From: Prevotella sp.
GTDB lineage: Bacteria; Bacillota; Clostridia; Oscillospirales; Ruminococcaceae
Assembly: GCA_023663025.1 (NCBI GenBank)
Contig: JAMPIC010000005.1
Span: 13,735-77,734 of the forward strand
DNA length: 64,000 nt
Direction: 5' to 3'
Part shown: positions 4,890-32,040 of the stretch, piece by piece
How the letters are laid out: each line of letters begins with the position of its first letter
Numbering within the stretch: the first letter of the stretch is position 1
Position numbers and translations under genes: made by a program
Notes under the pieces: model-generated
The model's input: only the letters and a program-made list of their open reading frames with translations
The model's database searches: none
What the model was told of the DNA's origin: nothing

Positions 4890-5909
4890 ATGAAAATACT
4901 GATAATAGGCGGAACGGGAACGATAAGCACCGCTATTTCGCGCAGGCTTGCGGACAGCGGCCACGAGCTTTATCTGCTCAACCGAGGAAACGCCAACGAC
5001 AAATTGCAGTCCCACATAAAATTTATCGCGGCGGACATAAACGACGAAAAAGCCGTTTCGGAAAAGCTGAACGGAATGACATTCGACGCGGTATGCGATT
5101 TTATCGGTTTCGTTAAACCTCAGCTTGAACGGGATTTCCGTCTTTTCGGCGGACGTACAAAGCAGTTCGTTTATATCAGCTCCGCCTCCGCGTACAACAA
5201 GCCGCCTGCCGATTACGTCATAACCGAGGGGACTTCCCTTGCCAACCCTTACTGGGAATATTCGCGCAACAAAATACAGTGCGAGGAATACCTTATGAAA
5301 CTTTACAGAGACGAGGGTTTCCCCGTCACGATAGTCAGACCCAGCCACACCTACTGCGAGACTTCCGTGCCGCTTGGGGTTCACGGCAGAAACGGCAGCT
5401 GGCAGGTCATAAAGCGTATGCTTGATGGCAAGCCCGTTATAATTCACGGCGATGGAACGTCCCTTTGGACAATGACCGACAGCAGAGATTTTGCCGAGGG
5501 TTTCACCGGACTTTTGGGAAATCCCCACGCCATTGGCGAGACGTTTCAGATCACCTCGGACGAAACCCTTACTTGGAATCAAATTTACCGCACGATTGCG
5601 GACTGCCTGGGCGTGGAGCTAAAGCCGTACTATGTACCGTCGGAATTTCTCGCGGCGGTGAGCGACTATGATTTTACGGGAAGTCTTATCGGCGACAAGG
5701 CTAATTCGGTTGTTTTCGACAACAGCAAGCTGAAAAGAGCCGTGCCCTATTTTCAGCCGAAAATCAGCTTTGCGGAGGGAATAAAAAACACGCTGGATTA
5801 TGTGCTTCTGCACAAGGAATGTCAAGCAGAAGATGAAGAATTTGACAATTGGTGCGACAAGGTAATTGCCGCACTTGAAAACGCAAAAAAGGAGATTTTA
5901 AAATGGTAA
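4890..5909 (+). CDS. NAD-dependent epimerase/dehydratase family (extended SDR) protein
   Basis: N-terminal Rossmann motif MKILIIGGTGTIS and an active-site YSRNK (YxxxK). The stop overlaps the next start (ATGGTAA), suggesting translational coupling. Confidence 0.85.
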   Translation: MKILIIGGTGTISTAISRRLADSGHELYLLNRGNANDKLQSHIKFIAADINDEKAVSEKLNGMTFDAVCDFIGFVKPQLERDFRLFGGRTKQFVYISSASAYNKPPADYVITEGTSLANPYWEYSRNKIQCEEYLMKLYRDEGFPVTIVRPSHTYCETSVPLGVHGRNGSWQVIKRMLDGKPVIIHGDGTSLWTMTDSRDFAEGFTGLLGNPHAIGETFQITSDETLTWNQIYRTIADCLGVELKPYYVPSEFLAAVSDYDFTGSLIGDKANSVVFDNSKLKRAVPYFQPKISFAEGIKNTLDYVLLHKECQAEDEEFDNWCDKVIAALENAKKEILKW

Positions 5910-6673: not shown

Positions 6674-7592
6674 AATTGCGGAGAATACTCCCTTTGCCGT
6701 TCACGGGGAGTTAGCCGTTGAGGGCGCGTATCTCGTCGATAAAAACGGGGAGAAAGTGCAGCTTCGGGGAATGTCTACCCACGGCATAGCTTGGCGGCCC
6801 GATTACATCAATTTTGAAACGTTTAAATTCCTGCGGGACAGCTGGAACAACAACTGCGTGCGCCTTGCCATGTACACCCACGAAAGCGGCGGTTACTGCA
6901 CCGACGGCGACAGGGAAAAGCTGAAAAGGCTTGTTAAAAACGGCGTTGAATACGCAACAGAGCTTGGTATGTACGTCATTGTCGACTGGCACGTCCTTAG
7001 GGAGAAAAATCCGCTGGTGTACAAGGACGATGCCGCCGCATTTTTTGAGGAAATGTCAAGGCTTTTCGCGGGCTGCGGAAACGTGATATACGAAATATGC
7101 AACGAGCCTAATTCCGCGCCCTGGGAGGATATCGCAGCCTACGCGGACGAAATTATTCCAATAATAAGGGCGAACAGCAACGGCGTGATTATCGTGGGAA
7201 CTCCCGACTGGAGCCAAGGAATTGACAAAGCCGCCGCCGCACCGTTAAATTATGAAAATATAATGTACACCCTGCATTTTTACGCTGCGACCCATACCGA
7301 CCGCCTGCGGGAGAGAATGTCGGTCTGCGCCGAGGGCGGTCTGCCCGTTTTCATAAGCGAGTTCGGCACTTGCGACGCGTCCGGCGGCGGAAAGGTTGAC
7401 CGTGAGCAGTCCGCAAAATGGAAAAAAATCATAGATAAATACGGCGCAAGCTATATCTGCTGGAATTTATCGAATACCGGACAGACGTGCAGTATAATTT
7501 CCCGCAGCTGCAATAAGCTGAGCGGCTGGACTGCGGAGGAGCTGAGCGAGCAGGGAAGGCTGGTTGCGGAATGGTTTAAGAGTGCGCATTAA
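6666..7592 (+). CDS. Glycoside hydrolase family 5 endo-beta-1,4-glucanase-like enzyme, no signal peptide
   Basis: VQLRGMSTHGIAW, NCVRLAMY, VIVDWH, the acid/base motif IYEICNEPN, HFYAATH and the nucleophile motif ISEFGT together form the classical GH5 (cellulase A) pattern. Confidence 0.9.
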   Translation: MDKIAENTPFAVHGELAVEGAYLVDKNGEKVQLRGMSTHGIAWRPDYINFETFKFLRDSWNNNCVRLAMYTHESGGYCTDGDREKLKRLVKNGVEYATELGMYVIVDWHVLREKNPLVYKDDAAAFFEEMSRLFAGCGNVIYEICNEPNSAPWEDIAAYADEIIPIIRANSNGVIIVGTPDWSQGIDKAAAAPLNYENIMYTLHFYAATHTDRLRERMSVCAEGGLPVFISEFGTCDASGGGKVDREQSAKWKKIIDKYGASYICWNLSNTGQTCSIISRSCNKLSGWTAEELSEQGRLVAEWFKSAH

Positions 7593-12549: not shown

Positions 12550-12825
12550 ATGGTTTTGTTTATTGTGTCATTATTTTTTATTGTGCACTTATATTGTAAA
12601 TCTAAGCTCATAAACAAGCAGATTTCTCAATGCTGGCACATTGCCCGTGAAAAAATAAAGGACATTGCTTCAAAGGAGGAAACGGATATGCTTCGTATGC
12701 GCTTTTGCCTGGGCTGGCAATGGAAAAAATGCGCAGCGGAAATGCAGAAAAAATACGGCGCGAAATGGAACATAAATATGGTGTTTCGTACATATCGCCG
12801 ATTATTGGCTAAATGCACAAAATAA
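12550..12825 (+). CDS. Hypothetical phage protein, possible sigma-70 region-4-like HTH (start uncertain)
   Basis: The C-terminal part EETDMLRMRFCLGWQWKKCAAEMQKKYGAKWNINMVFRTYRRLLAKC resembles small phage late-transcription/sigma r4-like HTH proteins. The N-terminal 25 residues of the listed ORF look non-genic. Confidence 0.25.
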   Translation: MVLFIVSLFFIVHLYCKSKLINKQISQCWHIAREKIKDIASKEETDMLRMRFCLGWQWKKCAAEMQKKYGAKWNINMVFRTYRRLLAKCTK

Positions 12826-12908
12826 TCATAAAAAGTTATACATTTTGTAAATTGAAAAAAAGCCGTTTCGGTCTTAAAATTATATTATGAAATATTATAT
12901 ATCGCAGA

Positions 12909-12942
12909 AAATCCTGCCGGCTTTGTCGGCGGGATTTTGTTA
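12909..12942 (+). terminator. Rho-independent terminator
   Basis: AAATCCTGCCG-gctttgt-CGGCGGGATTT hairpin (one T*G pair) followed by TTTTGTT, directly upstream of the tRNA. Confidence 0.6.
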
Positions 12943-12945
12943 TAT

Positions 12946-13021
12946 TGTGACGTATTCAAGAGGTTAAGAAAGCAGACTTTGACCCTGCTGTTCGTTGGTT
13001 CGAATCCAACCGTCACAGCCA
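12946..13021 (+). tRNA. tRNA-Gln (anticodon TTG), CCA encoded
   Basis: Manual cloverleaf, 76 nt in total:
- Acceptor TGTGACG/CGTCACA, a perfect 7 bp.
- D arm TTCA-AGAGGTTA-AGAA.
- Anticodon arm GCAGA-CTTTGAC-CCTGC (loop C-U-UUG-A-C, with an A31*C39 mismatch).
- Variable loop TGTTC.
- T arm GTTGG-TTCGAAT-CCAAC.
- Discriminator G plus CCA.
Collinear with canonical Firmicutes tRNA-Gln. Confidence 0.85.
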
Positions 13022-13048
13022 CAGTCAAATTTCAAGGGGGAGGAATAA

Positions 13049-13444
13049 ATGCCGAACAATCCTAATTCCGCCGCCAAGCTTAAACCGGTGACATCAAGCG
13101 ACGAGGCAAAGGAACGGGGGCGTAACGGCGGTATCAAGTCGGAGAAGTCAAGACGCGCAAGAAAGCAAGCTCGGGAATGTATGGAAATAATCTTAAAAAG
13201 CAAGGTCGCTAAAGATGAACATAAACAAATTCTTGCAAATATGGGGATTAAGGACAAAGACAAACAAAATATTATGCTGCTTATGGCTTCCCTGTTTTTT
13301 AAGGGAGTAAGCACCGGAGACAGCGGCACGGTAAAAGCTATTCTTGAAATTTCGGGAGATTTAGAGCAACCGCAGGAAACGCGGGCTCCGCAAATCAATA
13401 TAACGGTGTCAGCGGCGACAGCCGATGATATAGAAAATACCTAA
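13049..13444 (+). CDS. Phage protein of unknown function (possible small terminase-like/DNA-binding)
   Basis: Good RBS (GGGGGAGG). The basic N-terminus KERGRNGGIKSEKSRRARKQ is a motif I associate with small phage DNA-binding proteins. The function is not established. Confidence 0.4.
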   Translation: MPNNPNSAAKLKPVTSSDEAKERGRNGGIKSEKSRRARKQARECMEIILKSKVAKDEHKQILANMGIKDKDKQNIMLLMASLFFKGVSTGDSGTVKAILEISGDLEQPQETRAPQINITVSAATADDIENT

Positions 13445-13464
13445 TTTGGAAAGGAGGAAAATTT

Positions 13465-13629
13465 ATGCCTGAAACAACGAAACAAACTATCGCAAGAACT
13501 TCGGGCGGCGGAAGCGCACCCACAAGGTTTAAAAAGTCGGCGTATACTTCCGCAAAGGCGTTTGCCCGCAGCGGCGTGCTCGGCAGAAACGTTCAGCGAC
13601 GCAAGTCGCTCGGCAGCAAAGGTGGTTAA
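13465..13629 (+). CDS. Small basic hypothetical protein (54 aa)
   Basis: Not in the ORF track (under 60 aa). Strong RBS AAGGAGG 7 nt upstream. Translation: MPETTKQTIARTSGGGSAPTRFKKSAYTSAKAFARSGVLGRNVQRRKSLGSKGG. Confidence 0.3.
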   Translation: MPETTKQTIARTSGGGSAPTRFKKSAYTSAKAFARSGVLGRNVQRRKSLGSKGG

Positions 13630-13959
13630 TAATGAGCAATTTATTATTCGACCCCGTCAAGACGCAGGCAAGCGTTACGGACAGCGTTATTGTCGCTTTT
13701 TCTCGTCTTTGAAAATGAAAAGGCGAAAGCAGAATTTTACAAGAAAATCAGCACGCCGATTTCTGAAGAGTACCTGACCGTCGACAAGCTTATGAGGCTT
13801 GCGCAAAATGACGGTTGAAGCAAGATGAAACCAAGATAAGCTATGCAGTATGGATATTACAATGGGAAAGCCGCACAAAGTTATAACGTATATTTTGTGC
13901 AATTTATACGTTGTAACCGAAACGTAATAATGGTATAATATTATTATGGAGGTGTTGTA

Positions 13960-14757: not shown

Positions 14758-15018
14758 ATGCCGACATTAAGCATATTCAGAGGTATTAAAGTTTATATGA
14801 ACTGGAATGAACATAATCCGCCGCATTTTCACGCAGTATACGGCGGTGAAGAGGTAACGGTGCTTATAAAGGAACTGGAAGTATTAAGCGGCAGCTTGCC
14901 AAACAAACAGCTTAAAATGCTTTTAGGCTGGGCGGCGTTCCATCAGGAGGAGTTAATGGAAAACTGGGAGCTTGCCGAAAAGAAACAGGAGCTTTTCCAG
15001 ATTGAACCTATGAAATAA
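14758..15018 (+). CDS. DUF4160 domain protein
   Basis: MPTLSIFRGIKVYMNWNEHNPPHFHAVYGGEE is the hallmark DUF4160 N-terminus (F.GI.I.M...DH.PPHFHA.Y). Confidence 0.85.
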   Translation: MPTLSIFRGIKVYMNWNEHNPPHFHAVYGGEEVTVLIKELEVLSGSLPNKQLKMLLGWAAFHQEELMENWELAEKKQELFQIEPMK

Positions 15019-15033
15019 GAAAGGTGTGATATT

Positions 15034-15384
15034 ATGCCGAACAGTATTGAATATTATCTTTCTAAAGGCTGTGACAGAGCTGCTGCCGAATATTATGCGT
15101 CCGGCAGGAAAAAAATCATTTCCGTATCGCCTAATGAAGATTTTACATTAACGCTTTGCTTTGAAAGCGGAGAAAGGCGTATACTGGACTGCAAGCCTTT
15201 TCTTGACGGTGCTGTTTTTAAACCTTTTAAGAACTATGAAAACTTCAAGAGAGTATACCTTGACGATACAAGCTGTGTTGCATGGGACATTGATCCGAAT
15301 ATCGACAGTAATGTCGTATGGAACAATAAAGTTGATTTATGTCCCGATAGCTGCTATATTGACAGCGTGCCGATAGCCTATTAA
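15034..15384 (+). CDS. DUF2442-like protein with an N-terminal extension
   Basis: The pattern FTLTLCFESGERRILDCKPFLDGAVFKPFKNYENFKRVYLDDTSCVAWD...DLCPDSCY matches DUF2442 (..F.dG..r..D..p.l....f..L.d...F..v.vd....i.W). Confidence 0.6.
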   Translation: MPNSIEYYLSKGCDRAAAEYYASGRKKIISVSPNEDFTLTLCFESGERRILDCKPFLDGAVFKPFKNYENFKRVYLDDTSCVAWDIDPNIDSNVVWNNKVDLCPDSCYIDSVPIAY

Positions 15385-15451
15385 AGGAGAACGGGATTGG
15401 GTTTGCTTGCTCCCATATCTTTTGTACAATTGGAACAAGAGGGTACACGCC

Positions 15452-15703
15452 ATGTTACAGCCTAAAGTATTGAATGTTACGCCCTTGGAGGATTACCGCC
15501 TTCTTGTCGAGTGGGAAACTGGTGAAAAGAAAATTTTCGACGTTAAACCGTATATTATTGGCTCTTGGTTCGGCAAACTTCGCGATGTTCGGACGTTCGG
15601 GACGGTGCACCCGCGCGGTTCAACCGTTGAATGGGCGGACGGTCAAGACATTGCGCCCCACGAGCTTTACGAGCTTTCGGTGCTTGCAGGGGGTGATTTG
15701 TAA
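15452..15703 (+). CDS. DUF2442 domain protein
   Basis: VLNVTPLEDYRLLVEWETGEKKIFDVKPYI...FGKLRDVRTFGTVHPRGSTVEWADGQDIAPHELYELS. Start at MLQPKV with AGAGGG upstream. Confidence 0.8.
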   Translation: MLQPKVLNVTPLEDYRLLVEWETGEKKIFDVKPYIIGSWFGKLRDVRTFGTVHPRGSTVEWADGQDIAPHELYELSVLAGGDL

Positions 15704-15704
15704 T

Positions 15705-15893
15705 ATGGCTGTAAGCAAAGCCCAGCAAAAGGCTGTTGCAAAGTATATGAAAGAAAATTACGACAATTTTCAACTGCGAATGCCAAAAGGCAAGAAAGCG
15801 ATTATAAAAGATTTTGCGGATAAGCAGGGGGAAACTATGAACGGCTTTATAAATAAAGCTGTTGACGAGAAAATGCAGCGTGATAAACAATAG
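15705..15893 (+). CDS. Ribbon-helix-helix (Arc-like) protein, paralog of 13960-14193
   Basis: MAVSKAQQKAVAKYMKENYDNFQLRMPKGKKAIIKDFADKQGETMNGFINKAVDEKM. It shares the KAQ..A..K N-terminus and the MNGF(L/I)..A motif with the first RHH gene. The ATG lies 2 nt after the preceding stop. Confidence 0.6.
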   Translation: MAVSKAQQKAVAKYMKENYDNFQLRMPKGKKAIIKDFADKQGETMNGFINKAVDEKMQRDKQ

Positions 15894-15895
15894 AC

Positions 15896-15926
15896 AAAAG
15901 CGGTTGAAATATCAGCCGCTTTTTTG
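15896..15926 (+). terminator. Rho-independent terminator between the small-gene array and the terminase
   Basis: AAAAGCGG-ttgaaatatcag-CCGCTTTT followed by TTGTG. Confidence 0.6.
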
Positions 15927-15963
15927 TGTTGTTTTTATTTTATACAGAAAGGTTTTGATATAT

Positions 15964-17199
15964 TTGAATATAAAAGTCAAAGCAAACAAAGTGTATATAC
16001 CGTATTTCAACAAACCGCAGTTCACGCAGATATATTACGGCGGGAGCAGCAGCGGGAAGTCTTACTTTTTAGCCTCAAAGGTCGTGCTGGACAATCTGAA
16101 CGGCGTTAATTGGCTTGTTTGCCGCAATGTTGCCGCAACCATCGGAATGTCGGTATTTAACGAGATAACGAAAGCCATATCCAATATGGGATTGATGAAA
16201 TACTACAAAATAAACCGCTCCACAATGTCGATAACCTGTTTGCTGAACAGCAGGCAGATACTTTTCGCGGGACTGGACGACGCCGAAAAAATAAAGTCGG
16301 TAACGCCGATTGACGACGTTCTGCACCGCATATGGATAGAGGAGGCTACCGAGGTTAAGCGCGAGGCTTACAAGCAGCTGACAAAACGTCTGCGCGGCAA
16401 TACGAAAAGCAAATTTTCAAAGTGCGTTATATTATCGTTCAACCCCATTTTGCGCTCCCATTGGATATATAAAGAATTTTTCGGCGAATGGCAGGACGAT
16501 AAAACGTCTTTTGAAAGCGAACGGTTAAGCATACTCAAAACGACCTATAAGGACAATTTATTTTTGACCGACGACGACCGAAAACAGCTTGAAGATGAAA
16601 CGGACGAGTATTATTATCAGGTCTATACGTTGGGGAATTTCGGCGTTTTGGGACACGTTATCTTCAAGAACTGGCATACGGAGGATTTAAGCGGACTTAT
16701 ACCGACGTTCGATAAAATATACAACGGTCTTGACTTCGGCTACAGCGTTGACCCTAACGCGCTGATAAGGGTACATCTTGATAAAAAGCGCAAAAAGATA
16801 TACGTTTTCGACGAATGGTATCAAGCGGGAATGTCGGACAGCGAGCTTATACGGCTGGTAAAAAATAAAATCGGCACGCAGTATGTCACCTGCGACAGCG
16901 CAGAGCCGAAAACTATTGATTTGCTGTATGCAAACGACGTCAGGGCGGTCGCGGCGGTTAAAGGCGCGGACAGTATCAATCGCGGCATAAGGTGGCTTCA
17001 GGACTACGAAATTATTGTCGACGTAAGGTGTCAGAATTTCAAAAACGAAATCGAGCAATATCATTGGAAAGAGGACAGAAAAGGAAATGTAATGGCAATT
17101 CCCGCAGATATGAACAATCATTTGCTTGACGCGCTGCGGTATGCGCTTTGCGATGAGATTTTAGCGGCGGAAGTAAAGGCGGGACGGAGGCTGATTTAA
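15964..17199 (+). CDS. Phage terminase large subunit (PBSX/Terminase_3 type)
   Basis: Walker A YYGGSSSGKSYF, then WIEEATEV (Walker B/coupling). The C-terminal nuclease half has DFGYSVDPNA and NHLLDALRYA. Start taken at the in-frame TTG at 15964 (MNIKVKANK); it could lie further upstream. Confidence 0.9.
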   Translation: MNIKVKANKVYIPYFNKPQFTQIYYGGSSSGKSYFLASKVVLDNLNGVNWLVCRNVAATIGMSVFNEITKAISNMGLMKYYKINRSTMSITCLLNSRQILFAGLDDAEKIKSVTPIDDVLHRIWIEEATEVKREAYKQLTKRLRGNTKSKFSKCVILSFNPILRSHWIYKEFFGEWQDDKTSFESERLSILKTTYKDNLFLTDDDRKQLEDETDEYYYQVYTLGNFGVLGHVIFKNWHTEDLSGLIPTFDKIYNGLDFGYSVDPNALIRVHLDKKRKKIYVFDEWYQAGMSDSELIRLVKNKIGTQYVTCDSAEPKTIDLLYANDVRAVAAVKGADSINRGIRWLQDYEIIVDVRCQNFKNEIEQYHWKEDRKGNVMAIPADMNNHLLDALRYALCDEILAAEVKAGRRLI

Positions 17200-17354
17200 T
17201 GTGCGGTCATGATTTTATAAAAATAAATGATGTTTCGGTTTGTCGGAAATGCGGCTTGACCCGCACCTACGACGGCAGAATATTTTTTGACAAAAAGCTG
17301 CCGAACCGCAAGCGCCCAAAACGAAAAAAGGAGAATAAAAATGTCAAGGACTAA
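17199..17354 (+). CDS. Small putative zinc-ribbon protein (51 aa)
   Basis: Not in the track. The ATG overlaps the terminase stop (TAATG). Translation: MCGHDFIKINDVSVCRKCGLTRTYDGRIFFDKKLPNRKRPKRKKENKNVKD, with a CxH...CxxC arrangement and a basic tail. Confidence 0.35.
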   Translation: MCGHDFIKINDVSVCRKCGLTRTYDGRIFFDKKLPNRKRPKRKKENKNVKD

Positions 17355-17646
17355 AATGGAATTGCTCCCCGAATTTTCGGCGGAGCTTGAGGAAATCCGC
17401 AAAAGCGGCATAACCAAAGAATTACTGCAAAAAATCATTTCAAAGCACCAAGCGAACGCCGTATATAACAAAAAACTTTACGAACGGTATATGACCTTGC
17501 GGGAAAACGTACCGATATTCGGCAGAAAACCTCGTTTTGAAGATGAAGATAACCCTATCAACAACAAGTTGAATAACGATTTTTTCGGCGAGATAGTAGA
17601 TTTTAAAACGGGATATTTCGCGGGAAAACCTATCGCGTACAGCTAA
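17341..17646 (+). pseudogene. Phage portal protein (SPP1 gp6-like), N-terminal stub only
   Basis: MSRTKMELLPEF...YERYMTLRENVPIFGRKPRFEDEDNPINNKLNNDFFGEIVDFKTGYFAGKPIAYS* matches portal N-termini but stops after about 100 of an expected 450 or more residues. RBS AAAGGAG. Confidence 0.65.
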
Positions 17647-17692
17647 TTCCTTTATTGCGGAAACATATACAAAATATTCGGACGGTAACGGA

Positions 17693-18994
17693 ATGCTGAC
17701 GGTCGCGCAATTACAGAGGAGTGCAAAACTGGCTTGGTTCCTGAATGAGATTGACAAAAACTGCAATGAATATCTTCCCGATGTTTCAAGTGAGATACAG
17801 AAGCTTATAAATACCGTATATGAGGAATGTTATATCGGTATGGTCGAGGCGGTAAATCAAGCGCATGACTTGTCGGCGCTGAGGGTGCGCCCCGAGGTAA
17901 TGAAATCGGCAATCGCGAACAATATTGAAAAGCTGACCTTGCCCGCGCTGCTTGAAAAGAACCGCAAGGAGATAGTATACGAAATCAAGCAGACGGTAAG
18001 CATAGGACTTATGAACGGCGAGCGGTACGAAACAATGTCCCGAAAGCTTGTTGACAGGCTTGATTTCAGCTATGGCAAGGCAAACAATGTTGTGCGTACA
18101 GAAACGCACAGAAACATTGAGGCGGGCTTAATGGACGGCGCAGCGGAAACGCAGAAAGCCTTGTTGGGCAGCGGACTGGTACATACCGCGATATGGCGCA
18201 CAATGGAGGACGAACGCGTCAGACCGCAGAGGCGTTATCATACAAAAACGGGCTGGAAAACCAAAACCGCAGGCAAGGCAAATCATATGAAAATGGAAGG
18301 TGTGGCAATAATCGTCGGCGATAAGTTCAAATTAGAGCCGAATGTGTACGCGCCCTGTCCCGGAATGAGCGGTACGGCAAGAAACGACTGCAATTGCCGC
18401 TGCTTTCTTGAATACGACCTGCTTACGCTTGACGAATGGGCGGCATTGCCGAATAAACAGGAAAATTTCCTGTCGGCGAAAAGTCTTGACAAATCGGGGG
18501 AAAGTGGTATAATAGGGGTAAGGAGTGATAAAGTGACGATTTCAGCCATTGAACAGCCGATAGAGCAGCAGCACACCGGCAAGGGCAACCCAAACGCGAT
18601 TTTGACATTCGACGCTCCGCTTAACAGCAGACAGCAGAAACTGCTTGAACAGCTTAGCGAATTTGACAGCAAGATAATTGTACCTAAAAAATCGGTTAAT
18701 ATGGCGGATTTATCTGCACTCACCGCTAAAACGGGCGACGAGTTTGCTATGTTTACCAAAGGCGGCGAACGGCTTATTATCCGAGGAAACAATGTAATGG
18801 TAAACATAGGTAAAGAGGACGCGCAGGAACTGGCTGAACAGGGCTACAAGTGGAGCGGACATACTCACCCGGGAGTTGACGAAAATTGTTTGCTCCCATC
18901 TGGCGGTGATAAGGGTATATTACAGTGCTTTAATCAAGAAATCAGCGTTATATATAATTCAAAGGGCAACCGCCAAACGTTTGAAAAGGAGTGA
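17693..18994 (+). CDS. Phage head-morphogenesis protein (MuF / SPP1 gp7 family) with a ~190-aa C-terminal extension bearing a JAMM-like motif
   Basis: MuF core: KANNVVRTETHRNIEAGLMDG...WRTMEDERVRPQRRYH...NDCNCRCFLEYDL. The C-terminal extension ends ...TGDEFAMFTKGGERLIIRG...GYKWSGHTHPGVDENCLLPSGGDKGIL (E...HxH-x10-SxxD). Confidence 0.85.
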   Translation: MLTVAQLQRSAKLAWFLNEIDKNCNEYLPDVSSEIQKLINTVYEECYIGMVEAVNQAHDLSALRVRPEVMKSAIANNIEKLTLPALLEKNRKEIVYEIKQTVSIGLMNGERYETMSRKLVDRLDFSYGKANNVVRTETHRNIEAGLMDGAAETQKALLGSGLVHTAIWRTMEDERVRPQRRYHTKTGWKTKTAGKANHMKMEGVAIIVGDKFKLEPNVYAPCPGMSGTARNDCNCRCFLEYDLLTLDEWAALPNKQENFLSAKSLDKSGESGIIGVRSDKVTISAIEQPIEQQHTGKGNPNAILTFDAPLNSRQQKLLEQLSEFDSKIIVPKKSVNMADLSALTAKTGDEFAMFTKGGERLIIRGNNVMVNIGKEDAQELAEQGYKWSGHTHPGVDENCLLPSGGDKGILQCFNQEISVIYNSKGNRQTFEKE

Positions 18995-18998
18995 TATT

Positions 18999-19256
18999 AT
19001 GTGCAAATTATTTGATGAGTGGTCTCCGCAGATTGAAAAATTCTGCAATGAAAACGGTTTTGACTTTGAAAAGGCTAAGAAATTATCGAAAAGCTGGGGA
19101 AAAGACAATTTAGCTTTGCAGCACTACGACCCCGAAAAGGGTAAAATGGGACTGCGCGACGAAACACCTATGCCGCTTGTGCTGCGGATTAAGAAAAACC
19201 CCGATGACACTCTTGAATTTGTTCAGACTGAATACACGAAAAAGTATCTTGTGTAA
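18999..19256 (+). CDS. Hypothetical 85-aa protein, candidate immunity partner of the MuF C-terminal domain
   Basis: The ATG lies 4 nt after the MuF stop and GGAG is upstream. A terminator hairpin follows (AACCGC...GCGGTTTTG, 19268-19299). The function is inferred from position only. Confidence 0.45.
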   Translation: MCKLFDEWSPQIEKFCNENGFDFEKAKKLSKSWGKDNLALQHYDPEKGKMGLRDETPMPLVLRIKKNPDDTLEFVQTEYTKKYLV

Positions 19257-19468
19257 AAATGATATTTAACCGCTTTGAGTTTTCAAGGCGGTTTTGTTTA
19301 TTACTTTGACATAATAAAAAGCAATATACTTTGTGCATTATGTCAATGGAAAAAGTTGCTTTATAATGATACAATTATAACATTTATTGTATACGAATCA
19401 GTATTTATGTCGTTTATTATTACACGAATTAAAAAATAAATTATGTTATATTTTATTCTGATGAAAGA

Positions 19469-19861
19469 GTGAGTGTATTGGTAGAATTTCATGCATGGAT
19501 AACAATACGTCAATCATATTTAAATATTGATGAAGATGACTGTGAATTACAGCGTATTATTTTAAATATTAAAAGAAAAATAAAGGGCAGTATTGCATCA
19601 TTGGTTATAAAAAATGGAGAGTATTGTTTAACAGCACATTCATATTCCAATCATTTGTCTAAAGAATATGAAGAATTTTTTGAAATTGTTGATTTTGTTC
19701 AAAAAGTTGCGGTAGGGAGCTATGGTGTAATATATATATATGATGACGAAAAGTTGGATAAAAATAATTTGTTTCAAGTATATGTCATTAAAAAAGGAAA
19801 ATTACAGATATTGGATGATGTGTATTTATCTCCATTTATACCTGAAGTAGAGGAAAAATAA
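19469..19861 (+). CDS. AT-rich hypothetical 130-aa protein, possible orphan immunity protein
   Basis: The N-terminus (M)SVLVEFHAWITIRQSYLNIDEDD is, from memory, like an immunity-protein family of polymorphic toxin loci (Imm7-like). I have not verified this. Confidence 0.4.
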   Translation: MSVLVEFHAWITIRQSYLNIDEDDCELQRIILNIKRKIKGSIASLVIKNGEYCLTAHSYSNHLSKEYEEFFEIVDFVQKVAVGSYGVIYIYDDEKLDKNNLFQVYVIKKGKLQILDDVYLSPFIPEVEEK

Positions 19862-20235
19862 TATTTTATAACAAAACATTATTTTTGGCAGACTAATAAT
19901 TCTTGACACAATTCTTAATGGTCTTGAAAGCATGTAATTTCCAAAAAACAATTTGTCTTTAAGTGTAGCTCTTGAATTTCTCTTCGGGGTCATATTTTAA
20001 AAATTGTTTCAATAAATTTGTAACTTTCTACAAACTTTTAAAAACTGTGGGAAAATCACACAAAGATAATCTTTATATGAACAAGGTATACAACTGATAC
20101 AAAGTTGTATACCTTGTTTTTGTATATTTTGTTTGAGAGAATAACGCAACTCCTTGCCGTTATCAACCGTGAAGCTCTTTTTCAGTTTTCCGAAATCTTC
20201 TCAAACGCCGCAATAGGTAACAAGCAGGTAACAAA

Positions 20236-20499
20236 TCAAGGAAGTAAATCTATCGCTTTTCGCAGTTCTGCGACGTCTTTATGGGTGTAAACTTTATCGG
20301 TTATATTCGTCGAAGAATGCCCCATTAATCTTTGAATGCACACTTTATTCATACCGTAATTGTCCGCGCGTGTGGCGAATGTATGTCTGCAACCGTGCGG
20401 ACTGTGTTTCATTCCGTGTTTTTCGCACACCGCGTCAAAATATTTTCGGTACATTGTATATGAATTTGACGGTATTATAGCAGATCTACAAAATAACAC
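20236..20499 (-). pseudogene. Tyrosine integrase, C-terminal fragment only
   Basis: HGCRHTFATRADNYGMNKVCIQRLMGHSSTNITDKVYTH contains the HxxR and terminal GH...Y catalytic boxes. The roughly 250-300 N-terminal residues are absent. Confidence 0.8.
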
Positions 20500-20670: not shown

Positions 20671-21699
20671 ATGGAACAATATTACACTGCGCCCGCGCCG
20701 CCCGCTCCGGTCAGCGTCAAACCCGATAAGGAAGAACGCAGACTGATACGGAAAAAATATAACCTGACCGCCGCCGTACTTCTGATAAATATTTTTATTT
20801 TCAACGGTCTTGCCATCGGCAGCGGAATATTCAGCAATTCCCCCGTTTGGAACGACGAGTTTTTCAGTACGGCGTTCTCCTGCTGCGTACCGATATTAAG
20901 CGAGACCGCCGCAATAATCGCCGGCTTAAAGTTTCTTAATATAGACTTCAAGCCCTTGGCGACGCTGAACGGCTTTAACGGCGGTACGATATTCAAGCTT
21001 GTTACGCTGGCTGTCGGTTTGCAGACGTCCGCGTCGATCATCGCCGCGATCGTGGCTTATGTACTTGAAATGTTCGGTATCAAACCCGCAGCCGTGGATC
21101 TGTCGGCGACATCGTCCCTGCCCGCAAATCTGCTTATGTACTTCTACGCCTGCCTGCTCGGACCCGTTCTGGAGGAGCTTTTGTACCGCGGCATACTTTT
21201 GCAGTCCATGAGAAAATACAACGAAAAATTCGCGATTTTTCTGTCCGCGCTGATATTCGGACTTATGCACCAGAATTATCAGCAGTTCATACTCGGTTTC
21301 CTGATAGGCATACCGCTTGCCGTGGTAACGATAAAGAGCGGCTCCATCGTTCCGGCGATTTTCACGCACATTATCGTGAATACGAGCGGAATGTTTTTCA
21401 ACTGCTGGATGCAGTATTCCGATCCGGATTTTTTCAATTCCGCGCTTAAAGGAACAACGGACGCGGTGAACTCCCTCGATATTTCGGCGGCGGTTGTCGT
21501 TACCGTGCTGTTCAGATTTGCGGTTATGATCGCGGCGGCTATCGTGGGAATAATCATACTCGTCAAGGGAGGCAATATGAGTCGTCCCACCCCTGCTGGA
21601 AAAGCTCGCGCAATGCCGATTTTGGTTACATCGGTTCTGTGGTGGGCAGTATTTATACTGTATGCGGTTCTTAACTTTGTGCTGCCTTTTATCGGATAA
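20671..21699 (+). CDS. CPBP family intramembrane glutamic endopeptidase (CAAX protease/Abi-like)
   Basis: Polytopic protein with the motifs PVLEELLYRG, FGLMHQ and FTHIIVN, which are the EExxxR / FxxxH / HxxxN triad of CPBP proteases. Confidence 0.85.
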   Translation: MEQYYTAPAPPAPVSVKPDKEERRLIRKKYNLTAAVLLINIFIFNGLAIGSGIFSNSPVWNDEFFSTAFSCCVPILSETAAIIAGLKFLNIDFKPLATLNGFNGGTIFKLVTLAVGLQTSASIIAAIVAYVLEMFGIKPAAVDLSATSSLPANLLMYFYACLLGPVLEELLYRGILLQSMRKYNEKFAIFLSALIFGLMHQNYQQFILGFLIGIPLAVVTIKSGSIVPAIFTHIIVNTSGMFFNCWMQYSDPDFFNSALKGTTDAVNSLDISAAVVVTVLFRFAVMIAAAIVGIIILVKGGNMSRPTPAGKARAMPILVTSVLWWAVFILYAVLNFVLPFIG

Positions 21700-25925: not shown

Positions 25926-27605
<1,680 letters not shown>

Positions 27606-27701
27606 TTATACCACATCTTATTTTAAAATTCAATATGGTAAATTGCTAAATTTTATCTGACTTTTTTGACATAATCCGCTAATTTGCCGATTATATCAAA
27701 T

Positions 27702-27866
27702 TTATGCTGACCTTTGAATTTCCTTTCTTATTAACCTTGCGAGAATGTCTTTCAGGCTTTCGCCGTTTAAATTGAATTTGGTAACTACTTCGTATGTAGT
27801 GTACCCTATTTTGTATTTTGTAACTTCCTTTGGTGTATAGGTATTTATATATCCATTTCTAATCAT
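27702..27866 (-). CDS. TnpW-like small transposon protein (54 aa)
   Basis: MIRNGYINTYTPKEVTKYKIGYTTYEVVTKFNLNGESLKDILARLIRKEI matches the 'IG.T.Y.V...F......l.d.l.RLi..E' pattern of small proteins found beside TnpX-type recombinases. RBS GAAAGGAG. Confidence 0.5.
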   Translation of the reverse strand: MIRNGYINTYTPKEVTKYKIGYTTYEVVTKFNLNGESLKDILARLIRKEIQRSA

Positions 27867-27966
27867 TGAACTCCTTTCTGTCAAAGCGGGGTGTGTTCCA
27901 GCGTTTTATCGAACCTCCTTACATTTAAAAATTCACTACAAGGCATAAATATACTTTGTAAAGAAT

Positions 27967-27995
27967 ATTATATTCATTATGCTGAATTTTGTCAA
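27967..27995 (-). promoter_or_regulatory. Consensus sigma-70 promoter driving tnpW and the recombinase
   Basis: The minus strand reads TTGACA (complement of 27990-27995), a 17-nt spacer, then TATAAT (complement of 27967-27972). Confidence 0.55.
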
Positions 27996-28115
27996 GCTTT
28001 TAGAAACAAGTTTACAGAATGTTAATATTTGCCGTTTGTGAGAATTTTCCCGAACGGCGGATACTATGAAATAGTCCTAACCCACTATGACTATTTCCTC
28101 CGTAAATAGTCCTGT

Positions 28116-28200
28116 GGGAAAAACCGTCCTGCGGACGGTTTGGCTGTTCCTCTTGACCCCTATTGCAAAAAATCCTACCGCGTATCGCGATAGGATTTTG
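28116..28200 (-). terminator. Two tandem rho-independent terminators (minus strand)
   Basis: Hairpin 1 is AAACCGTCC-tgc-GGACGGTTT (28121-28141). Hairpin 2 is AAAATCCTAcCGCG-tat-CGCGaTAGGATTTT (28169-28199). Read on the minus strand, each is followed by a run of 5-6 T. Confidence 0.55.
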
Positions 28201-28540
28201 CATTGAATAAGAGCGGTTTTAGGTGAAACCTAAAATTTGGTAAAGGCATATGCACTTTACTGGGTGAAAGTATATGTATACTTTCTATGGCTTGCGAGCC
28301 TATGAAAAAACATTTTAACGGCGAAACCGCACTGCTTACTTAGGCTTTGCCCTAAGTAACGCCATAGTACATATGACATTGCCCTTTAAGGCAATATCAT
28401 ATGTACTGGCGCTCTCCGAGGGCAATATTTGCGGCGGTCTTAGGTGCAGCCGTACCTGCTTAGGTTTTGTCTCAAGTAATTTCATATGTGCAGGTGCTCT
28501 CATAGCGAAAACAGGAAATCAAGTAATGATTTCCTGTAAT
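28201..28540. ncRNA. Candidate structured RNA or long structured 3' UTR (hairpin-dense, ORF-free)
   Basis: No ORF here has an RBS. Perfect or near-perfect hairpins lie at 28217-28235, 28336-28359, 28366-28407 (11+6 bp) and 28511-28537 (11 bp). The region is bounded by minus-strand terminators. Class unknown. Confidence 0.25.
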
Positions 28541-28609
28541 TGCTTCAATATTATTTTTGCCCCATACATTAATTTTTATATTTTTTCGTTGATTAAGATA
28601 TAACTGTAC

Positions 28610-30031
28610 TTAATATGTAACTGAAATAGTAGGTGTGTCAATTCCATTGTAATTATCGTCCTTAATTTTTAAAGTAATTTCAAAATTTTCTATGTCTTCC
28701 GCACAGGAAACATTCGAATCATCAAGATACATATCCCATAATTTGATTTCTAAAATTACTGATTTACCAGCAGAAATAGTTTGACCATAAAAGCTATAAT
28801 CCATCATAAATCCGTTTACAGAAAATGAATCGTATTCATCAGTAATATAAATATCTTTTGTACTGCTGTTTTCGGCTAAAAGCATTATATGTATATCATT
28901 GCTATAAGCGCTGCTGTCGTCAATAGCTTTCTTTGAAACAATCCGTATGCCATTATTGTTATATATTTCCTCACCGGAATTGTCAAAGGACGATTTTACT
29001 TTTGGAATAGTAATTTTAATATCTGAGGAATCAATTATTTTGTCATAACTGTCACCCCGAACTACTAAATTAAATTCTATTTCTCCAATTTTATCTATGC
29101 CATACAAATCCCAAATGTTTTTTTCAATCATATTTGAAAACGCCATATCAACAACACAGCGTTTTCCCATATTAACGGTTTTGCTTGTCCAATTTCCGCT
29201 TTCAATAGTCAAACCATTCAAAGCAATATCACTTATACCAATATTAACAATTTCATCTGAATTGTTTTCAATTTCTAACAGTATAATATCATCACCGTCC
29301 TTATTTTTAAACAACATTTCAGAAATTAGGCGTATTCCATTGACATCATATAGTATATCTTCCGAAGAATAATTCAATGAATAGTCATATTTACTTTGGA
29401 GGGTATTACTTGATATTGCGTCTTTATAAGAATCAATAGTATAATCATAGGAATCATAGGCAGTAGTTTTTATTTGCAACGGACCGGTATAAATTTTATT
29501 GTAATCATCGTCCTCAATTTCAATATCTATTTCGATATCAGCAATTTCATTAATTCCATACAGACTTAATTCATTATAGCTGAATCCTATTGAGTCCATT
29601 GCCTTTTTCCCTGCTGAAACATCGCAATTCAAATAACCGCCATTGTACATATAGCCATTTACAGAATTACCGCTATGTCCCAAAGAGCCGGCAATAAACG
29701 ACAAGCTTTTGTTGCTGTTATTTTCAATCATAAGCTTAAGTTCCGCTTCATAATTATTGTAACTGAGTTCTGTTGCAGTAATTTTTACATCATTTTCGTC
29801 ATAGATAAGTATCTCTTCAATAGTCGCATTTTGTTTGAGTTCGGTTTTGTTCTCTGATTTAGTTTCGGTTTGAGCTGTGTAGGTTTCTTCATATTCTTCA
29901 TTACTTGTTGATACATCCTCATAGATTGCGTTTTCTAATGTTGTATTTTTTGTAGTGTCATTATCTTCATAGCAAGCAGTCATTGTCGCTGCAAGTAATA
30001 TTGTCATAAGTATTACTATTATTTTTTTCAT
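28610..30031 (-). CDS. Lipoprotein with three tandem ~130-aa beta-rich repeats
   Basis: Signal peptide and lipobox MKKIIVILMTILLAATMTAC (start 30031, RBS AAAGGAGG). Three repeats each contain a (L/I)xxENNS...NG(Y/L/F)... core and a Y/DxI.EIE..L.. tail. Confidence 0.75.
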   Translation of the reverse strand: MKKIIVILMTILLAATMTACYEDNDTTKNTTLENAIYEDVSTSNEEYEETYTAQTETKSENKTELKQNATIEEILIYDENDVKITATELSYNNYEAELKLMIENNSNKSLSFIAGSLGHSGNSVNGYMYNGGYLNCDVSAGKKAMDSIGFSYNELSLYGINEIADIEIDIEIEDDDYNKIYTGPLQIKTTAYDSYDYTIDSYKDAISSNTLQSKYDYSLNYSSEDILYDVNGIRLISEMLFKNKDGDDIILLEIENNSDEIVNIGISDIALNGLTIESGNWTSKTVNMGKRCVVDMAFSNMIEKNIWDLYGIDKIGEIEFNLVVRGDSYDKIIDSSDIKITIPKVKSSFDNSGEEIYNNNGIRIVSKKAIDDSSAYSNDIHIMLLAENSSTKDIYITDEYDSFSVNGFMMDYSFYGQTISAGKSVILEIKLWDMYLDDSNVSCAEDIENFEITLKIKDDNYNGIDTPTISVTY

Positions 30032-30144
30032 ACTGATACCTCCTTTCATAAAATTGTTTGAAATAATTAGGTTGCTTGCTAATTTTGCAAGTAAACTCTT
30101 TTCTTTTCCACTTCTGTTCATTATAAAGCTCCTTTTTTCAATAT

Positions 30145-30561
30145 TTAGGCAACATTACATTCTCTAATGTGAGATTTTACCAATGTTTGATTGGGTTTAA
30201 GAGTAATATCTCGTTCAATGGCTTCAGCTATTTTTGCGGGAGATGGATGATAGCCATTTGGTAAATTTCTAATATGTTCACACACATTAACGGGTATTTT
30301 TGTTGTTTCTAAATGGATTTTTGGAATTGAAACCGTTGGGGCAATCGGTAAAACTGTAATTTTCTCCATGTCAGCATAAGAATTAGGTGGTATTTTAGTT
30401 TGTGGTTTTTCAATGCTCCTTTTTAAATACTCCCATAACATAGTAATTGAGTCTCTATTTCTAATTGCTAAGATTATTGCAGTAAGACTCACTCCAACAA
30501 GAATCAATTCGTTCTTATGCTCTTTAACCCACTTGATAAATTTACTCTTTTGTTCTCTCAT
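30145..30561 (-). CDS. Membrane-anchored hypothetical protein (138 aa)
   Basis: One N-terminal TM helix (LILVGVSLTAIILAI). The C-terminal segment CEHIRNLPNGYHPSPAKIAEAIERDITLKPNQTLVKSHIRE belongs to no family I recognise. Confidence 0.6.
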   Translation of the reverse strand: MREQKSKFIKWVKEHKNELILVGVSLTAIILAIRNRDSITMLWEYLKRSIEKPQTKIPPNSYADMEKITVLPIAPTVSIPKIHLETTKIPVNVCEHIRNLPNGYHPSPAKIAEAIERDITLKPNQTLVKSHIRECNVA

Positions 30562-30643
30562 AATAAACCTCCGTAATAAATTATTAATTTTTGATACATT
30601 GTTTTTATTATTGTCATAATCTTATTTTTAAAACTATATGATA

Positions 30644-31717
30644 TCAATCCTCCCTTTTGTAGTTTTCGCAATAAATTTGGAATGAATTTGCGATATATCG
30701 GAATATGTATACTTTTACATTTTTCTTCTTGCATAAAATATATTCATCACTACGCAATAAAAAATAATCCTTAATGTTATCCAATAAAATTATGTTGTAG
30801 TCTTTTGAAACAATTTCAATTTTGGTCAAAATGCCGCATATTTGCTCAATTTCCCATTGTACCTCAGCAGAGAATGGACTTTTTTTATTCACACAAAATT
30901 TATAAAGGTTTTCAAAACTTTCTGTAAGAACCTTATCTATTTCATTATCCGAATTTTTCACAGTTGTGCAATAATATTTCACGGCATTAATGAAGAATAA
31001 TGTCTCATCGCAAGTTACTGTTGGTTCATCACCTGTCATAAGCCACACAGCAACACCTTCAAAAAATATTACAGATTCCGAAATAACCTTCGAAATAATT
31101 TTATGTATTTCTGTAATTTTAAGCTGTACCTCTTCTGAATAATAGGAATATTTTTCAGCATAAAGTTTTTTGGTATTTTCAAGAGCTTCAATCAAAATAT
31201 CCACTTCTTCGTCTGTAAAAGCTTTACTGATAAGGTCGTCATATTCATCACTAAGGCTTTTTCCAAAGCGAAAATTTTTACCAATTAATGAGAGGTATTT
31301 TATAGTTTTATCATAGTTCCATTTACTGTTTAAGTTAAGAATAATCTCAGGTGTGATACCCGTTTCCAATATAGCTTCTTGGGCATCAATATCCCTGTCG
31401 TACTCTTCTCTGCGCTTTTTTAACTTATTAAGATATTTTTCATGAAATGTTTTATAATTAAAATCAGTAGATTTTCCATAAATAATTTTTTTAATCTCTG
31501 AATTAGTGTACCAATCTTTTTTATTTTTGCAAAGCCCATTATAATCTTTTATCTCTTTTATCATACGGATTTTTTTAATTTCCATTTCATCAAAATGTTG
31601 TGCAATTCCTTGCCCTGTTTTATGAGTATCAAGTATTGCATCTATCCATCCTTGAAGTGTTTGTTTCGGTACATCAAGTTCTTTACTCAATTGAGAAACG
31701 GTTTTGATTTTTTTCAT
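30644..31717 (-). CDS. HTH (MerR/excisionase-like) domain protein with a ~300-aa helical C-terminal region
   Basis: N-terminus MKKIKTVSQLSKELDVPKQTLQGWI (HTH). The remainder is helical with an internal duplication (SEEVQLKITEIHKIISK / SAEVQWEIEQICGILTK). RBS AAAGGAGG. Confidence 0.6.
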   Translation of the reverse strand: MKKIKTVSQLSKELDVPKQTLQGWIDAILDTHKTGQGIAQHFDEMEIKKIRMIKEIKDYNGLCKNKKDWYTNSEIKKIIYGKSTDFNYKTFHEKYLNKLKKRREEYDRDIDAQEAILETGITPEIILNLNSKWNYDKTIKYLSLIGKNFRFGKSLSDEYDDLISKAFTDEEVDILIEALENTKKLYAEKYSYYSEEVQLKITEIHKIISKVISESVIFFEGVAVWLMTGDEPTVTCDETLFFINAVKYYCTTVKNSDNEIDKVLTESFENLYKFCVNKKSPFSAEVQWEIEQICGILTKIEIVSKDYNIILLDNIKDYFLLRSDEYILCKKKNVKVYIFRYIANSFQIYCENYKRED

Positions 31718-31930
31718 ACAGATACCTCCTTTATTTAAGTATAAAACTTACTGAGATCAGAAAGCAATACTATATTTTCAACAAATTTTTACAATGCTTT
31801 TTGTTAAGTATGACAGAAATAAATTGCATATACAAAAGCTGCCGATACATTAGTATAAGTATCGACAGCCATATAATCCGCTGTATTTGTCTTTTAATAA
31901 TATTTTTGAAAAACTTCTACATCGCTGTCA

Positions 31931-32040
31931 GCCTAAAGGCTGAGCCTTTGCCCTTATGGGCGTATATTGCCTGTAAGGGTAAATTGCTCCCACGGGCAAC
32001 AATACTTCCGTACCGTTACCTGCCTAAAGCCGAGGGACTT
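31931..32040 (-). repeat. Structured intergenic repeat, copy A (functional strand inferred as minus)
   Basis: The plus strand reads gcctAAAGGCtgaGCCTTTgCCCTTAtgggcgtatattgcctgTAAGGGtaaattgctcccacgggcaacaatacttccgtaccgtt... It starts 35 nt after the stop of the minus-strand gene 32075-32971. Confidence 0.6.

Follow-up and report, generated by a model that had tools for sequence, protein, structure and literature searches.

The 64,000-nt stretch analysed here (the window, from contig JAMPIC010000005.1) contains a prophage remnant in which a gene for a MuF-type phage head protein reads in frame into a C-terminal domain (CTD) and is followed by a gene for an 85-residue protein (p85). We propose that positions 18486-19300, which run from a promoter sequence embedded in the open reading frame (ORF) to the terminator behind p85, are an autonomous, moron-like toxin-immunity cassette of the MuF polymorphic-toxin type, and we put the probability of this reading at about 0.6. 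Coordinates are those of the window unless a locus code (L or P with a number) is given. The parts of the locus, with ribosome-binding sites abbreviated as RBS and residues as aa, are the following.

17693-18994, + strand: 5'-truncated MuF gene fused in frame to the CTD (433-aa ORF; RBS not obvious)
17981-18409, + strand: MuF domain, residues 97-239 (Pfam PF04233, E 3.4e-11; PHROG head-morphogenesis and minor-head families)
18486-18513, + strand: embedded promoter sequence of sigma-70 type (TTGACA, 16 nt, TG-n-TATAAT; 12/12 match, extended -10)
18494-19286, + strand: the cassette as an indel, 793 bp replacing 26 bp of the intact phage L137 (blastn and pairwise alignments)
18521-18535, + strand: internal RBS AGGAG (18521-18525) and GTG start (18533) of a predicted free 153-aa CTD (from the sequence)
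18533-18994, + strand: CTD, 153 aa, putative JAB-like metal-dependent hydrolase toxin (757 homologs, AlphaFold2 model, weak JAB signals)
18740-18742, 18860-18862, 18866-18868, 18899-18901 and 18908-18910, + strand: codons of the motif residues E350, H390, H392, S403 and D406
18999-19256, + strand: p85, 85 aa, partner of the CTD and putative immunity protein or inhibitor (RBS AAAGGAG, 18985-18991)
19268-19300, + strand: intrinsic terminator closing the cassette (11-bp stem at 19268-19293, 5 GC pairs, T-run)

The initial annotation, made from the letters of the sequence, had described a MuF protein with a C-terminal metalloenzyme motif and two small ORFs behind it as a candidate toxin/immunity cassette of a decayed prophage. 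Its MuF signature was confirmed by a Pfam match above the gathering score (Phage_Mu_F, 44.3 bits vs. a cut-off of 29.6, residues 97-239 of the 433-aa ORF). The cassette reading itself stood in its architecture, in the synteny of the 85-aa ORF and in a polymorphism that is demonstrated below; the inclusion of the second small ORF did not stand, and the membership of the CTD in the JAB family was not established.

Polymorphism of the C-terminus was searched with the MuF part alone (residues 1-258) as query. The closest relatives (87-89% identity) were short MuFs of 327-329 aa that end in ...SLDNNGV and carry no CTD; they stop exactly where the window reads on SLDKSGESGII... into the CTD. MuFs of 57% identity (438 aa, from Porcipelethomonas prophages) carried another C-terminal domain of ~108 aa after ...VDKSGGSGIIKTD, with a junction reading DKSGGSGII and a 53-aa ORF downstream; this alternative domain (P0427 type) belonged to no Pfam family. 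Conversely, a CTD 80% identical to that of the window was found in L050 on a different carrier that aligns poorly with the MuFs. The MuF scaffold is polymorphic, with no extension, a different C-terminal domain or this CTD, and a variable C-terminus on related MuF scaffolds is the defining behaviour of the polymorphic toxin family (Jamet et al. 2017, PMC5576092).

At the DNA level the cassette boundaries could be placed by comparison with the intact phage L137. As an indel, the cassette begins just past the -35 hexamer, after the shared 'CTTGACAA', and ends within the 3' half of the terminator; the 26 bp that it replaces in L137 include the stop codon of the short MuF. Prophage morons are promoter-to-terminator units between late genes, and a unit of this kind, with a predicted promoter, is present in the window and absent from the collinear L137. 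The cassette recurs in more than 100 phages and bacterial chromosomes. Complete promoter-to-terminator copies were found in purely chromosomal sites in L130, L131 and L132. In L130 (9054-10725) and L131 (6066-7779) a radical-SAM gene between rpsR and thrS, in a housekeeping neighbourhood (rpsF-ssb-rpsR ... thrS), has the cassette joined to its 3' end, and the promoter sequence supplies the last residues of the radical-SAM protein (...VLTMSPK) together with its stop codon. In L132 the cassette lies between two terminators. A further orphan copy, in the non-phage neighbourhood of L005, still has a 133-aa remnant of a Phage_min_cap2 carrier attached.

The association of p85 with the CTD was examined in 129 CTD loci (8 from metagenomes, 41 from IMG/VR viruses, 80 from genomes of GTDB species), nearly all of them from gut or rumen Clostridia. 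A p85 homolog detected by hidden Markov model (HMM) lay directly 3' of the CTD in 126 of them, usually 2-12 nt away, and the remaining three, like several weak matches, had a divergent small ORF ending in ...TEHTxKYL. In the window p85 begins 4 nt past the TGA stop of the MuF-CTD ORF and is followed by the hairpin at 19268-19293, as the initial annotation had described for its 85-aa ORF; the check it had proposed, whether this ORF accompanies the CTD elsewhere, is answered by these counts. The p85 family comprised 113 clusters (90% identity) of proteins that are always stand-alone, 84-105 aa long. p85 diverges along with the CTD: where CTD identity goes from 75% down to 52%, that of p85 drops from 67% to 24%, and the co-variation by the mirror-tree method is r = 0.67. 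A loop of p85, G51-L-x-D54-E-T56-P57, is conserved. The AlphaFold2 model of p85 (pLDDT 91) shows two helices, a four-stranded sheet and a further helix, and no match was found in Pfam, NCBIfam or PADLOC. A separate idea, that p85 is a ubiquitin-like substrate of a JAB enzyme, was rejected: Foldseek returned no beta-grasp fold, and the C-terminus is ...TEYTKKYL, not GG. In the viral contig L048 (5229-6950) the CTD is frameshifted and the p85-like gene downstream is intact, which is the pattern expected if an immunity gene outlives its toxin.

In the fusion protein the embedded promoter is translated as a linker, ...LDKSGESGII..., whose family form is DKSGxSGII. We scored its conservation in 110 non-redundant homologous loci (53 in-frame fusions and 57 short or stand-alone forms). 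The promoter was perfect (12/12) in 62 loci and had at most two mismatches in 96, against 0.46% and 2.8%, respectively, of random 112-nt windows of the same loci. It was present in 42/53 in-frame fusions and 54/57 short forms, and 83 of the 96 promoter-bearing loci had the TG extension. In a consensus of 70 sequences the T, T and G of the -35 hexamer were at 100% and the six -10 positions at 99-100%. In 13 loci the motif is non-coding yet conserved, because an in-frame stop lies 3' of the -35. A Shine-Dalgarno-like motif follows the -10 by 6-8 nt in most loci, and stand-alone homologs of 153-154 aa begin at the position of GTG 18533, with GTG or ATG. The same perfect promoter stands at the junction of a different C-terminal cassette in L134. 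At the other end, the stand-alone cassettes L130 and L132 close, like that of the window, with terminator-like hairpins.

From these observations we hypothesize the following mechanism. The CTD would act as a metal-dependent hydrolase of JAB/MPN-like type and do harm in the bacterial cytoplasm, and p85 would be its cognate inhibitor, acting through direct binding. In intact phages, where the cassette lies in frame at the 3' end of the gene for a head-internal protein (MuF, minor capsid protein 2, VG15 or portal), late transcription would yield a carrier-CTD fusion that is packaged in the capsid and ejected with the DNA into the next host. Proteins of the SPP1 gp7 type are known to be packaged and to be ejected together with the DNA, as cited by PMC5576092 and PMC5512222. 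In a lysogen with silent late genes, the embedded promoter would instead give p85 and probably free CTD, translated from the internal GTG or ATG, and this expression would confer immunity and perhaps also addiction. The conserved promoter sequence may double as a joint for cassette exchange. Virion delivery is impossible from the window copy, because the portal and MuF genes are truncated and there are no scaffold, capsid, tail or lysis genes. The cassette of the window can therefore act only through its own promoter; this internal promoter is the only one likely to drive expression, and the role of the copy would be that of an immunity and/or addiction module.

The same observations bear on the possibility that the CTD and p85 work mainly inside the cell, as a toxin-antitoxin (TA) moron for addiction or abortive infection, with the head-protein fusions secondary. 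A consensus promoter, an RBS, a start codon and a terminator all belong to the cassette itself, 57 of the 110 loci are short or stand-alone, and the pair persists, as addictive modules do, in eroded prophages and in phage-free housekeeping neighbourhoods. The stronger RBS and the ATG of p85, compared with the GTG of the CTD, favour an excess of p85. Two small adjacent genes with a predicted promoter of their own, and with stand-alone copies, are also what is expected of a type II TA system. A type II antitoxin is further expected to bind DNA or to belong to a known TA family, and neither was found for p85 in Pfam, NCBIfam, PADLOC or a structure search; there is no recognisable DNA-binding domain for autoregulation, and no TA or defence model of Pfam or PADLOC matched. 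In-frame fusion to four different capsid-internal carriers in 53/110 loci argues for selected packaging. We consider a mainly intracellular role unlikely, while noting that it is compatible with the proposed toxin-immunity cassette and does not exclude it.

The CTD, on which the proposed cassette turns, consists of the last 153 residues (about 281-433) of the 433-aa ORF. A word-indexed search gave 757 homologs of 62-80% identity, and a profile search of 1.84 billion cluster representatives (clusters at 50% identity) gave 711 clusters at E <=1e-3 and 242 at E <=1e-30. The domain is always the last part of its protein, and it ends 0-2 residues from the C-terminus in 220 of 248 proteins. Among 135 representatives of 50%-identity clusters the carriers were Phage_Mu_F (38), Phage_min_cap2 (28), VG15 (7) and portal (1), and many other homologs consist of the domain alone (153-154 aa). 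Residues ~281-433 had no match in Pfam, NCBIfam or PDB sequences, permissive thresholds included, and neither the single sequence nor the profile linked the CTD to a solved structure by sequence. It is an unnamed family with no Pfam model. PADLOC returned no relevant match for the CTD or p85, and the exact sequences of the MuF-CTD protein, of p85 and of two start variants of the Imm7 gene described below were not on record.

The E/HxH/SxxD arrangement that the initial annotation had pointed out, with its 10 residues between H392 and S403, was located in the string GDEFAMF...WSGHTHPGVDENCLLPSGGD. None of the five residues E350, H390, H392, S403 and D406 varies among 63 close homologs, and each reaches at least 90% conservation in the 135 representatives, so the motif passed the conservation check suggested for it. 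The order of elements in the alignment-based AlphaFold2 model of the CTD (pLDDT 86, pTM 0.78) fits a JAB domain, with E at the beginning of a strand, HxH closing a strand and SxxD opening a helix. The top Foldseek matches in the PDB were BRCC36, CSN6, Rpn8/Rpn11, EMC8/9 and cytidine deaminases (best E 0.09, TM-scores 0.24-0.40). MPN/JAB proteins and cytidine deaminases share a common fold class. In BFVD the sole strong match (E 3e-15) was a member of the family itself, annotated 'minor capsid protein', and a RadC protein appeared at E 0.024. Sub-threshold matches were seen to Toxin-JAB1 in 2/135 members (E 0.014) and to Prok-JAB in one divergent member of ten (E 0.069), the latter exactly over the HxH...SxxD stretch. 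When the CTD was aligned by hhalign with E. coli YeeS, all five motif residues fell in register (P 0.046, HHalign probability 1%). The window protein itself had no JAB, Prok-JAB, RadC, Toxin-JAB1 or DUF4329 match in Pfam at E <=10, and DUF4329 matched no family member that was scanned. Taken together, these results make a JAB-like fold with a metal site probable. Membership in the JAB family, which the initial annotation had read from the motif, is not demonstrated, as every signal lies below its significance threshold; we liken the CTD to Tox-JAB domains in its presumed mode of action without placing it among them.

One further stretch of the CTD deserves mention. The segment ISAIEQPIEQQHTGKGNPNA (18539-18598, CTD residues 3-22) is among the most conserved of the family, with P9, E11, K17, G18 and N19 invariant, and is mostly predicted to be disordered (residues 1-18, pLDDT <50). 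A role as a binding peptide or as a processing site is conceivable.

The properties of the CTD could also be those of a non-toxic effector delivered by the virion against host defence, for instance a JAB-type deconjugating peptidase or an enzyme that processes nucleotides or nucleic acids; p85 would then be a chaperone, a regulator or a substrate and not an immunity protein. Fusions of enzymes to MuF and portal proteins have been proposed to be injected early effectors, and RadC-type JAB domains occur in the effectors called 'polyvalent proteins' (Iyer et al. 2017, PMC5512222). The high conservation of the CTD sets it apart from toxins that diversify fast, and structures of MPN deubiquitinase type head the weak Foldseek list. 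An obligate small partner and a promoter of constitutive type, however, fit a toxin/immunity pair and are not needed for counter-defence. The p85 model is not beta-grasp or ubiquitin-like and has no GG terminus, and the survival of the pair at phage-free chromosomal sites would be hard to explain. We regard this alternative as distinctly improbable. That the C-terminal region serves the structure or assembly of the head (for example as a scaffold, decoration or DNA-binding module), with HxH/SxxD devoid of catalytic meaning, is scarcely credible: the gene does lie in a head-morphogenesis module, with minor head protein and head morphogenesis as its best PHROG matches and a 'minor capsid protein' as the best BFVD match, but those annotations stem from the MuF or min_cap2 carrier part, the closest MuF relatives lack the CTD in intact phage, the CTD and p85 occur alone in chromosomes without head genes, and no structural or DNA-binding family or fold matches the CTD; such a match is what the initial annotation had named as able to overturn its reading.

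Several results count against the proposed toxin-immunity cassette. No computational signal for toxicity or catalysis by the CTD is statistically significant: all Foldseek matches in the PDB have E >=0.09, with low TM-scores to MPN proteins, all JAB models of Pfam stay below threshold, and the His-to-Ser spacer is 10 residues and not 7. For a polymorphic toxin the domain is unusually conserved (the 62-80% identity extends over many species). GenBank phage records (INPHARED) held no match to the CTD, and it has no characterised relative; p85, likewise, matches no known immunity family or fold in Pfam or by structure search. The CTD co-varies with p85 (r = 0.67) not clearly more strongly than with its N-terminal carrier (r = 0.56), so this test adds little. 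Finally, a match to the promoter consensus is no proof of transcription, and the conservation of the DNA could partly reflect a recombination joint.

We compared the locus with known systems. MuF toxins with small downstream immunity ORFs have been described (Jamet et al. 2017, PMC5576092), as has the Apk2-IapK-Aph1 system of a Streptococcus pneumoniae prophage (PMC12226406). The locus agrees with these MuF polymorphic toxins on every architectural point that can be tested: a MuF domain with a variable C-terminal extension, a small ORF (<150 aa) directly downstream, a position beside terminase and portal genes in a Firmicute prophage, and the coexistence of short and long MuFs with different C-terminal domains on related scaffolds. 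It differs in that the CTD and p85 fall in no described toxin or immunity family, in the embedded consensus promoter, RBS and start, in the occurrence of the cassette free of any MuF gene, and in the state of the window copy, which sits on a 5'-truncated MuF in a remnant. Two toxin JAB clades have been listed, of which Tox-JAB-2/DUF4329, seen in Caudovirales, has the signature E, H[ST]H, S, D (Zhang et al. 2012, PMC3482391). With Tox-JAB-1 (Toxin-JAB1, PF15659) and Tox-JAB-2 the CTD shares these residues, a predicted alpha+beta fold that is probably of deaminase/JAB type and a place at the extreme C-terminus of a trafficking protein ahead of a small gene. In contrast to them, no member of the CTD family scores above the Pfam thresholds, and the CTD has a spacer of 10 between HxH and S, ~45 extra N-terminal residues that include the conserved disordered segment, and a partner that is not Imm65 or Imm-NTF2-2. 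The RadC-like JAB protein YeeS of E. coli (CP4-44) is similar in core size, and in addition to the RadC match in BFVD the marginal hhalign alignment sets 'HNHPSGE---VTPSKAD' against 'HTHPGVDENCLLPSGGD' with E/HxH/SxxD in register; RadC proteins, in contrast, show no fusion to head proteins and lack a partner like p85.

Orphan cdiA-CT/cdiI modules of contact-dependent inhibition (CDI) systems and rhs-CT/immunity modules are cassettes that are swapped at a conserved junction and can persist stand-alone, and colicin immunity genes have promoters of their own, so that immunity can be expressed apart from the main operon. The cassette described here resembles these systems, and morons, in a possible exchange at the junction, in its stand-alone copies and in a predicted independent expression of immunity. 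In contrast to the CDI, rhs and colicin systems, its junction is a consensus promoter that is read through as a linker peptide, its internal start is predicted to give a free toxin domain besides the immunity protein, and its carrier is capsid-internal and not a substrate of a secretion system.

The CTD/p85 pair and the promoter-as-linker junction are undescribed in the families and papers checked, and in particular the two MuF-toxin papers, PMC5576092 and PMC12226406, describe no native promoter or junction of such a kind; a library search on the subject brought up no relevant paper. MuF toxins are a recognised class, for which the immunity of the lysogen under silent late genes, the exchange of cassettes and the persistence of fragments are standing questions; a conserved promoter that is translated through at the junction of carrier and toxin offers testable answers to all three. 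We tentatively extend the proposal, at rather less than even odds, to the cassettes at MuF ends in gut and rumen Clostridia in general: these would be autonomous morons in which the promoter is the linker, each locus has two products and the promoter is the recombination joint. Under this extension the cassettes would be swapped at the ~30-nt promoter and would escape into chromosomes as TA-like pairs, and the toxin would represent an unnamed JAB-like clade and the inhibitor a new small-protein fold. Both families are abundant in Clostridia from the gut (human, Hadza, rabbit and ruminant) and are candidates for the domain databases. Should the CTD prove to be a JAB-type enzyme, knowing what it acts on (protein, conjugate or nucleic acid) would settle the activity proposed for toxin-type JAB domains. 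For the present genome the cassette is a leftover, probably still supplying immunity and/or addiction.

The prophage around the cassette is a remnant, as the initial annotation had supposed and as the comparison with the intact relative L137 bore out. The following features outside the cassette are discussed below.

15862-17199, + strand: gene for the terminase large subunit (TerL; Pfam Terminase_3, E 3.5e-49; Terminase_3C, E 2e-21)
17342-17646, + strand: portal gene fragment, first ~101 codons only (SPP1_portal profile positions 2-67 of 416; PHROG 64, E 1.6e-15)
17645-17649, no strand: deletion joint, at which 1,279 bp of the intact relative are absent (portal codons beyond ~101 and MuF codons 1-42)
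19287-19380, + strand: last phage-homologous stretch, from the MuF-scaffold intergenic region (85% identity to L137 10998-11090)
19469-19861, + strand: solitary immunity gene of the Imm7 family (PF15585, E 1.8e-27; likely start TTG 19478)
20079-20128, + strand: strong terminator-like hairpin 3' of Imm7, 17-bp stem
20236-20499, - strand: C-terminal fragment of a tyrosine recombinase, 87 aa (Phage_integrase profile positions 107-170 of 172, E 3.3e-12)

L137 is an intact phage with the gene order DUF4160, DUF2442, TerL, 51-aa ORF, 480-aa portal, short MuF, scaffold, capsid and tail. TerL, which forms the left part of the remnant, the portal fragment and MuF of the window are collinear with it at ~86% DNA identity: by blastn, window 15804-17645 corresponds to L137 7011-8848 and window 17649-18492 to L137 10128-10971. 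Similarity in the portal gene ends at window 17645 (L137 8848), after ~101 codons, and the deletion fuses portal codon ~101 to MuF codon 43. The 433-aa ORF therefore begins at a native internal Met, its ATG (17693) being about codon 58 of the full-length gene. Alignments with L093, L044 and P0379-P0383 placed the missing 57-58 N-terminal residues upstream of the Pfam domain. The loss of 57 N-terminal codons and of most of the portal gene means, judged from the sequence, that the window gene is unable to encode a complete MuF protein. This 5' truncation, like the promoter, RBS and GTG inside the ORF at 18486-18535, goes beyond what the initial annotation had recorded.

On the right, phage similarity continues past the cassette for 94 bp (19287-19380) and then stops. 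The position of the scaffold gene is taken by Imm7, the second terminator and the 87-aa integrase fragment, after which host genes begin; the recombinase fragment is the right edge of the mobile-element debris, and a host CAAX-protease gene follows at 20671. A search for att-type direct repeats around the remnant found none.

The AT-rich 130-aa ORF at 19469-19861 (27% GC vs. 43-49% in its neighbours), which the initial annotation had taken for an orphan and counted as the second small ORF of the cassette, proved to be a bona fide Imm7 gene that matches the full model (96.6 bits vs. a cut-off of 25, profile positions 2-130 of 130), and of the two small ORFs searched against Pfam it is the one with a family. 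As a second immunity gene for the CTD toxin it was rejected, since it accompanies the CTD in 0/129 loci; Imm7, moreover, is linked to Tox-REase-3 toxins and not to JAB toxins (Zhang et al. 2012, PMC3482391). It is a separate and solitary gene outside the CTD/p85 cassette. Its neighbours are p85 with the terminator and the integrase fragment, and, in contrast to the known setting of the family, neither a Tox-REase-3 gene nor a polyimmunity locus was present in the 17.2-21.7 kb interval that was examined. No close relatives of it were found in IMG/VR or the JGI metagenomes.

Some additional observations were made on related loci. The MuF with the alternative C-terminal domain lies within 6001-7468 of L134 and is very abundant; P0427 is listed on 467 contigs and indexed in 1,024 collection blocks, and L134 has a TIR_2-domain gene just 5' of the small terminase. 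In L001 the cassette lies after tape-measure-like and portal-like genes and before Dit, and the CTD and p85 are followed by an 86-aa ORF and a 52-aa ORF (6736-7204). The 52-aa ORF resembles the 53-aa partner in L134 and, on that sequence resemblance, may be an orphan immunity gene. The 86-aa ORF shares a module ending in FPPLEVVDEE with the N-terminus of an upstream HAD-like protein of 194 aa (5298-5882).

Elsewhere in the remnant, a DUF4160-like ORF (14758-15018, PHROG 14333) and DUF2442-like ORFs (15034-15384 and 15407-15703) precede TerL, and the DUF4160/DUF2442 pair sits at the same place in L137. Between TerL and the portal fragment, a 51-aa ORF (17199-17354) has two CxxC-like pairs (MCGHDFIKINDVSVCRKCGL...); a small ORF of 46-51 aa occupies this position in L137 and L134. 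A tRNA-Gln gene (anticodon TTG, 12946-13021) lies within phage-derived sequence. It was considered as an attachment site or edge of the element and rejected: its flanks (12607-12945 and 13021-13702) are contiguous in L137 (3374-3712 and 3713-4396), and the sequences therefore identify it as a 76-nt insertion in the prophage remnant. Further along the window, the region 27000-32000 has a GC content of 29-38%, compared with about 50% around it, and contains several minus-strand ORFs of 357-552 aa.

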